From Escherichia coli (lineage in GTDB: Bacteria; Pseudomonadota; Gammaproteobacteria; Enterobacterales; Enterobacteriaceae): a DNA stretch of 64,000 nt. The notes beneath the pieces are model-generated. The model did no database searches, had not been told where the DNA came from, and worked only from the letters and a program-made list of their open reading frames with translations. Shown piece by piece: positions 28,028-35,303 of this stretch (the first letter of the stretch is position 1; each line of letters starts with the position of its first letter). Both the position numbers and the translations under genes were made by a program. The stretch lies in the NCBI RefSeq assembly GCF_041886205.1, contig NZ_CP169029.1; one strand, given 5' to 3'.

Positions 28028-29308
28028 ATGAGTAAGTCTGAAAATCTTTACAGCGCAGCGCGCGAGCTGATCCCTGGCGGTGTGAACTCCCCTGTTCGCG
28101 CCTTTACTGGCGTGGGCGGCACTCCACTGTTTATCGAAAAAGCGGACGGCGCTTATCTGTACGATGTTGATGGCAAAGCCTATATCGATTATGTCGGTTC
28201 CTGGGGGCCGATGGTGCTGGGCCATAACCATCCGGCAATCCGCAATGCCGTGATTGAAGCCGCCGAGCGTGGTTTAAGCTTTGGTGCACCAACCGAAATG
28301 GAAGTGAAAATGGCGCAACTGGTGACCGAACTGGTCCCGACCATGGATATGGTGCGCATGGTGAACTCCGGCACTGAAGCGACCATGAGCGCCATCCGCC
28401 TGGCCCGTGGTTTTACCGGTCGCGACAAAATCATTAAATTTGAAGGTTGTTACCACGGTCACGCTGACTGCCTGCTGGTGAAAGCCGGTTCTGGCGCACT
28501 CACGTTAGGCCAGCCAAACTCGCCGGGTGTTCCGGCAGATTTCGCCAAACATACCTTAACCTGTACTTATAACGATCTGGCTTCTGTACGCGCCGCGTTT
28601 GAGCAATACCCGCAAGAGATTGCCTGTATTATCGTTGAGCCGGTGGCAGGCAATATGAACTGTGTTCCGCCGCTGCCAGAGTTCCTGCCAGGTCTGCGCG
28701 CGCTGTGCGACGAATTTGGCGCATTGCTGATCATCGATGAAGTAATGACTGGCTTCCGCGTGGCACTGGCTGGTGCACAGGATTATTACGGCGTAGTGCC
28801 AGATTTAACCTGCCTCGGAAAAATCATCGGCGGTGGAATGCCGGTAGGCGCATTCGGTGGTCGTCGTGATGTAATGGATGCGCTGGCCCCGACGGGTCCG
28901 GTCTATCAGGCGGGTACGCTTTCCGGTAACCCAATTGCGATGGCAGCCGGTTTCGCCTGTCTGAATGAAGTCGCGCAGCCGGGCGTTCACGAAACGTTGG
29001 ATGAGCTGACATCACGTCTGGCAGAAGGTCTGCTGGAAGCGGCAGAAGAAGCCGGAATTCCGCTGGTCGTTAACCACGTTGGCGGCATGTTCGGTATTTT
29101 CTTTACCGACGCAGAGTCCGTGACGTGCTATCAGGATGTGATGGCCTGTGACGTGGAACGCTTTAAGCGTTTCTTCCATATGATGCTGGATGAAGGTGTT
29201 TACCTGGCACCGTCAGCGTTTGAAGCGGGCTTTATGTCCGTGGCGCACAGCATGGAAGATATCAATAACACCATCGATGCTGCACGTCGGGTGTTTGCGA
29301 AGTTGTGA
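28028..29308 (+). CDS. hemL: glutamate-1-semialdehyde 2,1-aminomutase HemL (426 aa)
   Basis: [26 protein letters not shown]...; class-III aminotransferase fold. Confidence 0.95.
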
Positions 29309-29315
29309 TGATTTT

Positions 29316-29336
29316 GCCTCGCCCACCGGGCGAGGC
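29316..29336. terminator. hairpin between convergent hemL and fhuB
   Basis: gcctcgccc-acc-gggcgaggc, 9-bp GC-rich stem. Confidence 0.5.
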
Positions 29337-29342
29337 ATTCAA

Positions 29343-31325
29343 TTAACGGCTCTGCTTTCTCAACAAATAGATAAAATATGGCGCGCCGATAAAGGTTGAC
29401 AGCAGCCCCGCCGGGATCTGGAATGGAAACAGCACCATCCGCCCACACCAGTCAGCGAACACCAGCAATAAACCACCCACCAGCGCCGAAATTACGATGT
29501 GCGGCATCGTCCGTCGAAAGCCCATCATCCGCGCAATATGCGGTGCCATTAAACCAACAAAACTCAACGGTCCAATAGTCATCGTCGCGGTCGCCGTCAG
29601 GCAAGCCGCTAACAGCAGCAGCGCAATTCGCGTCGGCGTCAGCGCCATTCCTACGGCTCGGGCGGTATCACCACCCAGCGGTAAAATGGTCAGCCAGCGG
29701 CGGCACAGCGGGGTAATCGCCAGCAAAATCACCATCACAATTCCGGTGCGCCAGACCTGCGCATCGGTCGCGTTGTAGGTCGAACCGGAAATCCAGGTCA
29801 GCACTTGCGCCATTCGCGGGTCACCACTTGCCTGCAACATCATCAAAAGCATGGTGAACGCGGTACTTAACGCCATCCCCGCCAGTAACATGCGGTGTGG
29901 GGAAAATCCACCGCGTCCGGCGGCGATCATAATGATCAACAGCGTCACCGCCGCCCCGAGACTGCCTGCGGGTAACAGCCAGCCAAAGGCATTACCCGGT
30001 ACCAGAAACAGCATTAACACCACACCAAACGCCGCGCCGGAGCTAATCCCCAGCACTTCCGGGCTTGCCATCGGGTTGCCGGTCAGTCGCTGAATAATAC
30101 AGCCCGCTACCGCCAGCATGACGCCCGCAAACAGCGCCGCCATAATTCGCGGCCAGCGCCAGGGCATTAAATCCTCGAGCAACGCCCCGCTCGCCCACGT
30201 CCAGCCGTGCGCATCACGACCAAACGACAGCGCCACCACCACAGCCATCAACAACAGCACGCCGCCCGCGAGGGCAAACGCCAGCACATGTTGGCGTTCA
30301 GTCGCGACACGATCGTTAACCTTCATATCCGGCGCGCTAATGCTGCGTAAACGCGGCAGCAGCCACAGTAGCAGCGGCGCACCGATCAACGCAGTGACCG
30401 AACCGGTGGAAACTTCCATCCACACGCGAGTCAGCCAGAGGATGATTTGATCAGAAAGCCACAGAATTAACGCACCAATCAGCGACGCCAGCATCAACCG
30501 TGGCAACAAACGCCGCGCCCCCAGCATTTTTGCCAGCAGCGGCGCGAACAACCCGATAAAGCCGATAATCCCTACCGCATTCACCAGCAGCGCACTGATG
30601 ACTATCGCCAGCGACAGCGCCGCCAGACGCGCGAGCGACAAGGCCAGCCCGAGATTGCGCGCCACGCCATCATCAAGCCCCATCAGGGTTAACGGGCGAA
30701 GTAGCAATAACGTCAACATCACGCCGCCCAGCAACTGCGGCCATAAACGCTCAACGCCGCCCCAGTCGGTTTGCGTCAGCGTTCCGGTGCTCCACAGGAA
30801 CATGCTTTGCAGCTGGTCGTGATGGAAGATAACCAGTAGCTGATTAATTGCCCCGCAATAAAGGCTCACCACCAGCCCCGCGAGAATAAGCGTAACCGGC
30901 GAAAGCCGTTTCCCCCACGCGACGCCAAAGACGATTAAGCCAACGACACAAGCGCCCACCAGCGCGGCAAACTGGCTCGCCATAGCACCTGGGATCGCCC
31001 AAAGTGTGGTGACGGTAATTCCCAGTTGCGCGCCTGTAGCAACGCCAAGCGTCGTCGGCTCCGCCAGCGGGTTACGCAGCACTTGCTGAAACAGCACGCC
31101 CACCAGCCCCAGGCCCGCGCCCACCAGCAGCGAAATCGCCAGACGCGGCAACAAGCTGTAGTGAAAAATCATCTGCTCGATGACGTCAATATCCGGCGAC
31201 CAGGTGGCCTGCGCCCACTGGCTGCGCGGCAGCGCCTGCGAAAAAGTCATCCAGGTGAGCGCCGTAGCGGCAATCACCAACAGCGCCAGCAATAACGCCG
31301 GAAAAAGCGCAATTCGTTTACTCAC
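29343..31325 (-). CDS. fhuB: ferric hydroxamate ABC transporter permease FhuB (660 aa, internally duplicated)
   Basis: Two homologous FecCD-type permease halves in one 660-aa ORF; 4-nt overlap with fhuD. Confidence 0.95.
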   Translation of the reverse strand: MSKRIALFPALLLALLVIAATALTWMTFSQALPRSQWAQATWSPDIDVIEQMIFHYSLLPRLAISLLVGAGLGLVGVLFQQVLRNPLAEPTTLGVATGAQLGITVTTLWAIPGAMASQFAALVGACVVGLIVFGVAWGKRLSPVTLILAGLVVSLYCGAINQLLVIFHHDQLQSMFLWSTGTLTQTDWGGVERLWPQLLGGVMLTLLLLRPLTLMGLDDGVARNLGLALSLARLAALSLAIVISALLVNAVGIIGFIGLFAPLLAKMLGARRLLPRLMLASLIGALILWLSDQIILWLTRVWMEVSTGSVTALIGAPLLLWLLPRLRSISAPDMKVNDRVATERQHVLAFALAGGVLLLMAVVVALSFGRDAHGWTWASGALLEDLMPWRWPRIMAALFAGVMLAVAGCIIQRLTGNPMASPEVLGISSGAAFGVVLMLFLVPGNAFGWLLPAGSLGAAVTLLIIMIAAGRGGFSPHRMLLAGMALSTAFTMLLMMLQASGDPRMAQVLTWISGSTYNATDAQVWRTGIVMVILLAITPLCRRWLTILPLGGDTARAVGMALTPTRIALLLLAACLTATATMTIGPLSFVGLMAPHIARMMGFRRTMPHIVISALVGGLLLVFADWCGRMVLFPFQIPAGLLSTFIGAPYFIYLLRKQSR

Positions 31326-32212
31326 GCTTTACCTCCGATGGCGTTATCCAGAACGCGCACAAAGTGCATTGCCGAGAGCGTCGCACCATAAAACCAGACT
31401 GCAGGTACGCGCTGAAAGCGTCCGGCGCGGACAAACGGCATGGCCTGCCACAGCGGCGTTGCCATTAGCGCATCCATGTCTTTGCTGTTGTCGTGATCAA
31501 AACAGAGCACATCAACGTCTTTATACGCCGCCAGACGATCGATACTGACGGCGGTACTGCCCCAGAAGTTGGTTTCCCCTTGCCAGGCATTTGGGATGCC
31601 GTACTCATCGAGAATTTCCTGAAACAAGCTGTTTGGACCGAAAACCAGCATATGGCGCGGATCGATAAGCGTCGTCAGCAATAACGGGCGTGCACCACGC
31701 TTCACAAAGCGGGGTTTCATGCTGCGGATAAAGTCTTCATATTGCGCTAAATGCGTTTCTGCTGCGCTTTGCAGGTTAAGTAAATCTGCCATTTCCGTCA
31801 GCGATTTACGCGCCATCGCCAGCGGCTGTTTGCCGTCGCTGAAGTTAAATCCGCGACCCGGTGCAATACGTGCCAGCATTTCTGGTGAAGGGCCATATCC
31901 TGCCGACCAGACCATAAACGACGGTTTCATTTCGGTCAGCAGTTCAAGGTTAGGTTCTGTACGCAAACCAACGTCAATCACTGAGTCCGGCAATAGCGGT
32001 TCGCTGACCCACAGGCGATAGTTGATGGTATCCGCCACGCCGTAAGGCACGATGCCGAGCGCCAGCAGTAATTCCACCGGCAACCACTCCAGCGCCACAA
32101 TACGATTGGGATCAATAGCCACCGCGTGGGCGGTATTAATCTGCCATAACAACGGAGAAAGCGCCATCGCCGTTAACAGTCGACGGCGCGAAATAAGAGG
32201 TAAGCCGCTCAT
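31322..32212 (-). CDS. fhuD: ferric hydroxamate periplasmic binding protein FhuD (296 aa)
   Basis: Start at ATG 32212..32210 (MSGLPLISRRRLLTAMALSPLLW, Tat-like signal); the ORF-track start at 32215 is TTG. Confidence 0.9.
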   Translation of the reverse strand: MSGLPLISRRRLLTAMALSPLLWQINTAHAVAIDPNRIVALEWLPVELLLALGIVPYGVADTINYRLWVSEPLLPDSVIDVGLRTEPNLELLTEMKPSFMVWSAGYGPSPEMLARIAPGRGFNFSDGKQPLAMARKSLTEMADLLNLQSAAETHLAQYEDFIRSMKPRFVKRGARPLLLTTLIDPRHMLVFGPNSLFQEILDEYGIPNAWQGETNFWGSTAVSIDRLAAYKDVDVLCFDHDNSKDMDALMATPLWQAMPFVRAGRFQRVPAVWFYGATLSAMHFVRVLDNAIGGKA

Positions 32213-33059: not shown

Positions 33060-35303
33060 TTAGAAACGGAAGGTTGCGGTTGCAACGACCTGACGTTCTG
33101 CGCCCCAGAAGCAGCCATAAGTGTTAAAGCAGCTGGCGACGTATTCACGATCGAACAGGTTGTTGACATGCAGCGCCACGTTGGAGCCCGCCATGCCGAC
33201 TCGCGCCAGATCATAACGCACTAACGCATCCACGACCGTATAACTTCCCACTTTAAAGGAGTTAGCCGGATCACCATAGCTGGAGCCAGTATAACGACCA
33301 CCGGTGCCCAGCGTCAGACCTGAAAGTGGACCGTCAAAGAAGGTATAGTCAGCCCACAGCGAAGCCATGTGTTTTGGCACCTGTGCAGGCGTATTTCCTT
33401 TGTAGTTGGTGTCAGTGGTGTATTCCGCGTCGGTGTAGGTGTAAGAACCGACTACGTTAACACTCGCCGATAGTGCCGCTTTCGCTTCCAGCTCTACGCC
33501 ACGCGCACGAATCTCACCGCCTTCAACCGAGAAGAAGGAACCCTCAGGGTCCGCCATCAGGTTGTTGGTTTTAGTGAGATTATACACGGCACCAGTAACT
33601 ACAATCGGACGATCTTCCGGTACATATTTCACACCGACTTCATACTGCTTACCCTTAGACGGTGCGAAAATATTACCATCCTTCCCAACTTGCGAAGAAG
33701 GTTCAAACGATTCGCTATAGCTAAAGTAAGGTGTTACGCCATTATCAAACAGGTAGTTAACACCACCACGCCAGGTAAACTGTTTGTCATCACGTTTATC
33801 GGTCGTCCCGGCAACGCGGTTAAGAGATTCTTGATCTGCCCAGTCATAACGACCGCCCAGGGTTACCAGCACTTTATCCCACTGCGCCTGATCCTGAACA
33901 TAAACGCCCGTTTGTTTCTGTTTATTCAGAATGCGGTAAGGGCCGGAGTTTGCCGGATCTTTGGCATTGAAGTCGAAATCGGTATTCACCGGATTGTACA
34001 GATTGAGCAGTGGCACAGAGTCGTCGTAACCAAACCAGGCGTTGATGTCATTACGCATACGCATAAAGTCGACACCGGTCAACAGGGTGTGGTCGATATC
34101 GCCAGTGGCAAACTTGCTCTGCAACTGGGTATCAACGGAGAAGTTTTGCAGCTTCTCATCATCAACGACGTATTTACGTGCCAGATAATGGCCTTTATCC
34201 GCTGGCGCTAATGCCGCACACTGTTTGCTGTAAGCATTCGCCGGATCGGAGCAGACGCCGTAACCATAAACGCTGTTTTGCGAGGTTTTGTTTTCAGCAA
34301 AGCGCAGGTTCTGACGCACAGTAAAGGTGTCGTTAAATTCGTGATCGAAGCTGTAGCCGACCATCTTCTCATTACGAGAATAGGTGTTGTTCTTCGCCCC
34401 TTCATTAAAGTCTGTCGGCAGACGCTTACCGTTCGGCAGCGGCTCAACGGTTCCCTCTTTCGGCAACCAGCCGTAATAACCGGTTTCCGGCTCGTTCTGG
34501 AAGTAAGAAAGGAAGGTGAAATTGGTTTTATCATCCGGACGCCAGGTGAACGCCGGTGCAATAGCATAACGCTGCTCTTCTGACCCTTTCTGCTGGGCAT
34601 TGGCAGAACGCGCAAGACCGGTCAGGCGATAAGAGTAAACGCCGTCATCATCCAGCGCATCGCTAAAGTCAAAACCAGTCTGGAACAGGCTGTCAGTACC
34701 GGCTTTAAACTGAACTTCTTTGAGCGGTTCGGTGGTCGGACGCTTGCTGACCATATTCAACAGACCGCCAGGACTACTTTTACCGTAAAGCACGGAAACC
34801 GGGCCACGCATAATTTCAGCGCGTTCCAGCATATACGGATCAATGACCGCATCGTTATAGAAGTTGCCCTGCAACTTCAGGCCATTCAGATAGTTATTCT
34901 GGCTTTGGCCTTCTGCCGCAAAACCGCGAATGATCAGGTGGTCATAGGTGTTGGATGCGCCACGCGTACCAACAGAGACACCCGGCGTGTAGCTAAGCGC
35001 TTCTTTTACCGACTTCGGCTGATGCAGCGCCATCTCTTCGGCGGTCACAACAGAAATAGACTGTGGCACTTTTTGAATCGGCGTATCGGTTTTAGTGCCG
35101 GTAGCTGACTGTCGCGCCGCAATAGTTGCAGCAGGCCCCCATGCGCTTTCTTGCGGCGCAGGTGCAGCGGTAACGGTGATAGTGTCTTCTTTCGGTTCAA
35201 CCGCTGCCTGTGCATAAACAGACATGCCGCTAACCGCTGTGGCTACTACAACTGCGATTTTACGCAGTGAGTGTTTTGGCTGAGCAGTTTTGGAACGCGC
35301 CAT
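33060..35303 (-). CDS. fhuA: TonB-dependent ferrichrome outer membrane receptor FhuA (747 aa)
   Basis: Signal peptide, TonB box (DTITVTA), plug and 22-strand barrel, C-terminal ...VATATFRF. Confidence 0.95.
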   Translation of the reverse strand: MARSKTAQPKHSLRKIAVVVATAVSGMSVYAQAAVEPKEDTITVTAAPAPQESAWGPAATIAARQSATGTKTDTPIQKVPQSISVVTAEEMALHQPKSVKEALSYTPGVSVGTRGASNTYDHLIIRGFAAEGQSQNNYLNGLKLQGNFYNDAVIDPYMLERAEIMRGPVSVLYGKSSPGGLLNMVSKRPTTEPLKEVQFKAGTDSLFQTGFDFSDALDDDGVYSYRLTGLARSANAQQKGSEEQRYAIAPAFTWRPDDKTNFTFLSYFQNEPETGYYGWLPKEGTVEPLPNGKRLPTDFNEGAKNNTYSRNEKMVGYSFDHEFNDTFTVRQNLRFAENKTSQNSVYGYGVCSDPANAYSKQCAALAPADKGHYLARKYVVDDEKLQNFSVDTQLQSKFATGDIDHTLLTGVDFMRMRNDINAWFGYDDSVPLLNLYNPVNTDFDFNAKDPANSGPYRILNKQKQTGVYVQDQAQWDKVLVTLGGRYDWADQESLNRVAGTTDKRDDKQFTWRGGVNYLFDNGVTPYFSYSESFEPSSQVGKDGNIFAPSKGKQYEVGVKYVPEDRPIVVTGAVYNLTKTNNLMADPEGSFFSVEGGEIRARGVELEAKAALSASVNVVGSYTYTDAEYTTDTNYKGNTPAQVPKHMASLWADYTFFDGPLSGLTLGTGGRYTGSSYGDPANSFKVGSYTVVDALVRYDLARVGMAGSNVALHVNNLFDREYVASCFNTYGCFWGAERQVVATATFRF

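Follow-up and report, generated by a model that had tools for sequence, protein, structure and literature searches.

Two alleles of the hemL-fhuB junction in Escherichia coli: a conserved hairpin in the short spacer and a REP cluster in the longer spacer of K-12

The y and z2 palindromic units of REP/BIME-2 were reportedly described by Gilson and Bachellier, and polymorphism of BIMEs among E. coli strains is said to have been treated by Bachellier et al. in 1997 (Genetics 145:551). An E. coli REP is an imperfect palindrome of 30-40 nt in which a GTAG on the 5' side of the foot is conserved (PMC3333891). Convergent gene pairs are the setting of about 60% of E. coli REPs, and a REP is present in about 30% of such pairs; what REPs do at these sites is still debated (bioRxiv 10.64898/2026.03.23.713779). 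It has also been reported that REP locations differ between strains (bioRxiv 10.64898/2026.03.23.713779) and that BIME length polymorphism has been noted, with a citation of Bachellier 1997 (PMC2817692). The literature that we searched contained no description of the hemL-fhuB junction considered here, and nothing on Term-seq with REPs between convergent genes.

We compared this junction, as it occurs in a 64-kb stretch of E. coli DNA (the window, by which we mean the whole stretch analysed), with K-12, with other complete E. coli genomes and with other Enterobacterales. Our best explanation as a whole, to which we assign a probability of about three in four, is that the window carries an ancestral junction whose hairpin is a putative terminator, that REPs have replaced this hairpin in a second allele, and that the two alleles have been shuffled within the species.

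A 634-nt query across the junction found matches in 5,424 of 5,426 complete E. coli genomes, one record being 100% identical, and the names hemL and fhuB come from the annotation of the features under matches in records identical or near-identical to the window. The spacer, TGATTTTGCCTCGCCCACCGGGCGAGGCATTCAA, is exactly 34 nt long. An earlier note on this DNA had read the same gap between the convergent stops, and the ORF list agrees, with gene ends at 29308 and 29343 (Table 1). The single GC-rich hairpin which that note had seen in the spacer (gcctcgccc-acc-gggcgaggc) is likewise present, at 29316..29336, and an outer T-A pair extends it to a stem of 10 bp around a 3-nt loop. It starts 7 nt past the hemL stop, and on the far side 5 nt remain between its end and the complement of the fhuB stop. 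Eight of the ten stem pairs are G-C, and the hairpin alone has a predicted energy of -19.8 kcal/mol (about -20). As RNA on the hemL strand, a 54-nt region has a predicted energy of -26.4 kcal/mol, where shuffled versions give -12.2 +/- 2.8 (z = -5.2), and none of 200 shuffles equalled it; on the fhuB strand the fold gives z = -3.8 against shuffles.

Table 1. Features of the hemL-fhuB junction in the window
Feature	Coordinates	Strand	Basis
hemL (glutamate-1-semialdehyde 2,1-aminomutase), 426 aa	28028..29308	+	ORF list and annotation of 100%-identical record (634 nt)
hemL stop codon TGA	29306-29308	+	
Convergent spacer, short allele, 34 nt	29309..29342	none	Window sequence, ORF list
Stem-loop TGCCTCGCCC-ACC-GGGCGAGGCA, 10 bp with 3-nt loop, putative hemL terminator/3'-end hairpin	29315..29337	+	Fold, covariation
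Tail TTCAATTA 3' of hairpin, weak U-tract in hemL direction, overlapping complement of fhuB stop	29338..29345	+	
fhuB (ferric hydroxamate ABC transporter permease), 660 aa	29343..31325	-	ORF list and annotation of matching records
fhuB stop codon TAA	complement of 29343-29345	-	

As a stable GC-rich stem-loop just 3' of the hemL stop on the sense strand, the element has the arrangement of a terminator, and judging from its sequence it is most likely a putative one-directional intrinsic terminator of hemL, a stabiliser of the 3' end, or both. Across five short haplotypes of E. coli, 0 of the 20 stem positions vary, compared with 4 of the 14 spacer positions outside the stem (Fisher p = 0.02). 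The variable part of the tail reads ATTCAA in the window, ATTCTA in HS, 2012C-4606, GPEC1446 and PSJ-32-1, and ATTTTA in O157; the corresponding tail forms are UUCAAUUA in the window and UUCUAUUA and UUUUAUUA in the other two variants. A simple terminator scan, which needs at least five T in eight positions, fails on the window tail TTCAATTA, one short with four, and calls the O157-type tail TTTTATTA as a terminator on the hemL strand. The approximate d'Aubenton-Carafa score is +2.9 for the window in the hemL direction, +13.6 for the common form TTCTATTA and +35 for O157. Tails in this direction are U-rich in all variants, and the U-tract of the window is the weakest that we saw. Given this poor U-tract, termination in the window could be inefficient or Rho-dependent.

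A near-perfect palindrome that is placed close to the midpoint between the two stops and folds on both strands might also be expected to serve as a bidirectional intrinsic terminator, for the hemL and the fhuACDB transcripts alike, and many E. coli convergent pairs share such terminators (bioRxiv 10.64898/2026.03.23.713779). We consider this unlikely here, because what comes after the stem on the fhuB strand is AAAAUCAUCA, which is no U-tract (T-score 0.24, approximate d about -29), and the scan called no minus-strand terminator in any variant. The versions of the hairpin in Citrobacter and Enterobacter, described below, likewise lack a U-tract on the fhuB side. Transcripts of fhuB presumably end otherwise, by Rho inside antisense hemL.

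The hairpin might instead be a solitary or degenerate REP-like element, or a palindrome bound by a protein at the DNA level, and in either case no RNA terminator. The same spacer recurrently houses REP-like repeats in other genera, and the hairpin of Enterobacter sp. Bisph1 is preceded by GTAG overlapping the foot of its stem. The E. coli hairpin itself is of another kind: it has no GTAG/CTAC tag beside it on either strand, and with a perfect 10-bp stem and a length of 23 nt it differs from the 30-40-nt imperfect palindrome of a REP. Nor is it seen to be dispersed: allowing as many as three mismatches, the 64-kb window has a single copy of its 21-mer (chance expectation 0), none was found in 49 kb of K-12, and the 70-nt short junction is always present once per genome. 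An Rfam scan of 28900-29800 returned no match at E <= 1. We regard a REP-like or protein-binding identity of the hairpin as highly improbable and keep to the reading of a one-directional hemL element.

The junction of K-12 is built differently. The earlier note had supposed a longer spacer there and had taken an identical 34-nt spacer as the finding that would speak against it; comparison with MG1655 (NC_000913.3) gives a fhuB end at 173444, a hemL end at 173602 and thus a spacer of 157 nt, so that the supposition was correct. The layout is TCCAGCATGGTTT-(GTCGGATGCGGCGTGAACGCCTTATCCGACCTAC)-GATTCGGGGCCGTTT-(GTAGGCCCGATAAGACGCGCCAGCGTCGCATCGGGCA)-TCCGTT-(GTCGCGTAAACGCTTTATCCGTCCAGGCGTAC)-AGGGCCGTTATATGGAAAAA, where parentheses enclose three REP-type units. 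These fold as separate hairpins of 32-37 nt, the first with the internal mismatch typical of REPs. Unit 1 (spacer positions 14-47; ...CCGACCTAC) ends in CTAC, unit 2 (positions 63-99; GTAGGCCCGATAAG...) starts with GTAG, and unit 3 (positions 107-137) ends in GTAC and is further decayed in a second long haplotype. By the REP consensus sequences, we take the units to be an inverted y, a z2 and a degenerate y, respectively. Unit 3 with its linker GGGCCGTT can be aligned with unit 1 and its linker. The allele therefore has the architecture of REPs, with GTAG/CTAC-tagged imperfect palindromes in alternating orientation and short linkers, and from its sequence the cluster amounts to about 1.5 BIME-2 units, a y followed by an inverted z2 and then by a degenerate y, the linker being repeated.

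The K-12 cluster also has the dispersed, extragenic and repeated distribution of REPs. For its y-z2 part (query positions 28-117), the other matches in a genome number 9 in the median and 20 at most, at ~80-91% identity, and none of those elsewhere, among the matches listed, falls under an annotated feature; one example lies between cpsB and cpsG. The copy of NC_000913.3 used here lists no repeat features over 150-199 kb, and the REP label is accordingly ours. The earlier note had proposed presence/absence of a REP/ERIC-type element, and of this the REP part holds. An ERIC/IRU identity was rejected, as the spacer forms three separate hairpins where an ERIC would form one palindrome of ~127 bp, and it matches REP pairs elsewhere; this judgement was made from the fold and the REP matches.

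The idea of a simple insertion or deletion does not hold either, since the hairpin is missing from the long allele. A search of that allele for the short-allele hairpin, with up to three mismatches, gave no match, and we rejected on this ground a decayed hairpin within it. Of the spacer sequence, just the opening base and the final two are common to both alleles. The difference is a replacement and not a clean insertion.

Which allele is older can be judged from other genera. Our outgroups came from a HemL scan with one genome per species, in which 80 Enterobacterales loci were listed, with no E. albertii, E. fergusonii or Salmonella among them. At 51 of the 80 loci listed, fhuB is convergent to hemL and less than 1 kb away. 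Among these 51, the spacer is at most 60 nt in 17, nearly all with a single strong predicted hairpin, and GTAG-tagged palindromes occur in 15; others have CCCTCTCCC-type repeats. The spacers of Citrobacter sp. Cu233 and FP75 are 36 nt long and contain the stem GCCTCGCC/GGCGAGGC, also written CGCCTCGCC(T)/(A)GGCGAGGCG; that of Enterobacter sp. Bisph1 is 33 nt long and contains GCCTCTCCC/GGGAGAGGC, also given as AGCCTCTCCC/GGGAGAGGCT. The 3' end of hemL in Cu233 is only 85% identical to that of the window. To judge from their sequences, these stems are clearly the same hairpin as that of E. coli.

Comparison of the stems bears this out. In an alignment of five distinct hairpins, 98% of cells are paired, against 37-58% with slid partners, and three of the ten stem pairs show compensatory change on both sides. 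The covariation score over these five sequences is 0.34, against 0.04-0.09 for slid partners, and was reached by 1 of 500 shuffles; from so small a sample, covariation is supporting evidence and not proof. Because Citrobacter and Enterobacter carry the stem in the corresponding place, it is the hairpin that is the older state, and by this sequence comparison the window has lost nothing, the short allele being both ancestral and the majority form in E. coli. The earlier note was thus right that the window is without a repeat present in K-12; this is no loss in the window strain.

An opposite history, in which the short spacer is derived and the window lineage deleted a REP/BIME cluster ancestral in E. 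coli, would fit with an old long allele, the two long haplotypes being ~8-9% apart, and with the variation of BIME copy number by gain and loss (PMC3333891). Deletion of REPs cannot, however, create a hairpin which the long allele is without, and the shared, compensated stem of Citrobacter and Enterobacter stands at the same position. The short allele is also found in O157:H7, in HS and in PSJ-32-1, the most divergent among the short-allele genomes listed. It occurs, moreover, in strains that presumably belong to phylogroup B2, which also counts against deletion. We consider this history very unlikely and already largely refuted, and retain the hairpin junction as the ancestral one.

Three other Citrobacter (L005, L007, L076) hold REP pairs in a different arrangement, without the hairpin, and the K-12 flanking and linker sequences are shared by no outgroup spacer among the loci listed. 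On these sequences, replacement of the hairpin by REP-type repeats is an event that has occurred more than once in the family.

Two further observations concern the outgroup spacers. The Bisph1 hairpin (locus 3782-3814) looks REP-tagged, the GTAG overlapping its stem foot being part of CCTGTAGCCTCTCCC...; this may be chance, or may be a hint of kinship between terminator hairpins and REPs. In the spacers of Pseudocitrobacter, Buttiauxella, Superficieibacter and Pluralibacter (L013, L017, L026, L012, L025 and others), a palindrome of the form CCCTCTCCC-loop-GGGAGAGGG occurs between one and four times, with GGGTGAGGG motifs close by; this is a repeat family different from the GTAG-tagged REPs.

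Within E. coli, the hemL-fhuB site is essentially biallelic. A 70-nt query centred on the spacer found the short allele in 3,713 of 5,426 complete genomes by blastn and in 3,697 by megablast, the 70-nt junction being identical to that of the window in 1,730 genomes. The long allele was found in 1,701 genomes with a 193-nt K-12 spacer query (at least 80% covered), and a query from the second long haplotype again gave 1,701; the identity bands of these queries mix full-length with partial REP matches, so that exact counts per long haplotype are not given. Short and long alleles together make up 5,414/5,415 genomes with a full-length junction (68% short, 31% long). Genomes with the short allele include O157:H7, HS, O111:H8, UM146, ATCC 25922 and NRG 857C, while MG1655, BL21(DE3) and BW-type laboratory strains are among those with the long one, and the second long haplotype occurs in genomes including a strain named ST648. 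We take HS and K-12 to belong to phylogroup A, the UM146 group to B2 and ST648 to F; if so, both alleles cross phylogroup lines.

The flanks are compatible with a long history of exchange. The two long haplotypes are of equal length and differ at 12-14 of 157 sites (~8-9%), and their coding flanks (300 nt) differ by 1.7% and 2.7-4%. The flanks of the short allele in the window and of the long allele in K-12 differ at 5 of 600 sites, and over wider flanks divergence is patchy, with anything between 0 and 30 differences per 500 nt. Allele state is thus not tied to flank divergence, which fits an old polymorphism whose alleles have moved between backgrounds by recombination. As for the long allele, the equal length and alignability of its two haplotypes, rather than a tree, suggest a single origin.

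The comparison with K-12 showed several other differences. In fhuB, 1-2 kb into the gene (window 30343-31342, covering the 5' half of fhuB and the end of fhuD), there are 29-30 differences per 500 nt, and a further bin 4-4.5 kb away (window ~33341-33841) has 25, with 2-13 in neighbouring bins. This patchiness suggests recombination patches in the fhu operon. The pyrH-frr spacer of the window (10277-10279) is without a K-12 insert of ~146 nt (NC_000913.3 ~192,632-192,777) that is strongly self-pairing (-53.8 kcal/mol) and single-copy. The insert is present in 3,513 of the 5,426 E. coli genomes and has no relation to the REPs of the hemL-fhuB junction. Collinearity with K-12 ends at window 45493 (K-12 157,295, between folK and yadN), and beyond this point K-12 150,000-157,295 gave no megablast match to the yad fimbrial region of the window. 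No REP was found across the whole 64-kb window, either with the classic consensus (three mismatches) or with the K-12 REP cluster by blastn-short, and in 49 kb of K-12 (150,000-199,000) the hemL-fhuB cluster is the only REP-like match. One E. coli genome departs from both alleles: in strain FDN-24 (NZ_CP158147.1, locus 1486-4371), hemL and fhuB are 3'-truncated, abutting and annotated as pseudogenes, a deletion that takes the spacer and both gene ends. Loss of hemL would be surprising, and an assembly error is possible.

Taken as a mechanism, our explanation would run as follows. The 34-nt spacer would be the ancestral, minimal hemL/fhuB junction, and its stem-loop, transcribed at the end of the hemL mRNA, would both terminate transcription independently of Rho and keep out 3'-to-5' exonucleases. 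Towards fhuB, the stem-loop might at most make the polymerase pause or protect a 3' end made otherwise. In one early E. coli lineage, a REP cluster would have replaced the hairpin and given rise to the 157-nt K-12 allele, and both alleles would have segregated in E. coli since, moved between backgrounds by recombination. The data show how the junction is built, how frequent each allele is, that the hairpin is homologous across genera and covaries, and that the K-12 allele consists of REPs; the terminator or stabiliser function, the single origin of the long allele and the manner of replacement are the steps that we infer.

Both alleles probably do the same basic job. The RepRanger paper lists, from RNA-seq of K-12, a putative 76-nt RNA, AC0173 (NC_000913:173,549-173,624, minus strand), labelled 3'UTR fhuB/hemL (PMC12306157 Table S1), and this interval covers the last 23 nt of hemL and the spacer to 6 nt past the first REP. 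AC0173 has the look to be expected of a REP-protected 3' fragment of hemL, and as it ends just past the first REP, that REP is suggested to have the same role as the hairpin. By analogy, the REPs may add effects on both strands, which have been proposed for REPs between convergent genes (bioRxiv 10.64898/2026.03.23.713779).

A more specific idea is that RAYT-mobilised REP pairs land preferentially at the hemL terminator hairpin and take the place of the terminator, and that the allele changes the insulation of hemL. Among the loci listed, the hairpin is missing wherever REPs occur, in K-12, in three Citrobacter and in about a dozen other genera. We regard the idea as speculative and quite unlikely. 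If true, BIMEs would spread by structure-directed replacement of intrinsic terminators, and the alleles would form an old, recombination-shuffled polymorphism that could affect how far hemL, and with it haem synthesis, is protected under iron shortage against read-through arriving from the convergent, Fur-controlled fhuACDB operon.

K-12 is in the minority state at this site: in about two thirds of E. coli, what follows hemL is a plain conserved hairpin in place of REPs. This is of use for annotation, and for picking natural allele pairs with which to test what REPs add over a simple terminator. As a clean and nearly biallelic locus, with flanks less than 1% different between the window and K-12, the junction offers a natural experiment on REPs between convergent genes.

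Set against known systems, the difference at hemL-fhuB is ordinary REP/BIME polymorphism, of a kind already known. The window junction resembles the Rho-independent terminators of enterobacterial genes in its GC-rich 10-bp stem, its 3-nt loop, its place 7 nt past the stop codon, its U-containing sense tail and its compensatory change across genera, whereas its U-tract (UUCAAUUA) is poor and continues into the fhuB stop codon. The K-12 allele is like REP/BIME-2 elements with y and z2 units (PMC3333891) in being tagged, alternating, joined by short linkers, extragenic, placed between convergent genes, dispersed and polymorphic between strains; unlike them, the window has no REP, and the K-12 cluster is small, with a degenerate third unit (GTAC). 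As in other cases of BIME presence/absence and length polymorphism (PMC3333891; bioRxiv 10.64898/2026.03.23.713779), an intergenic region differs between strains by a REP cluster, but here the allele without REPs has a conserved hairpin of its own, which is missing from the allele with REPs.
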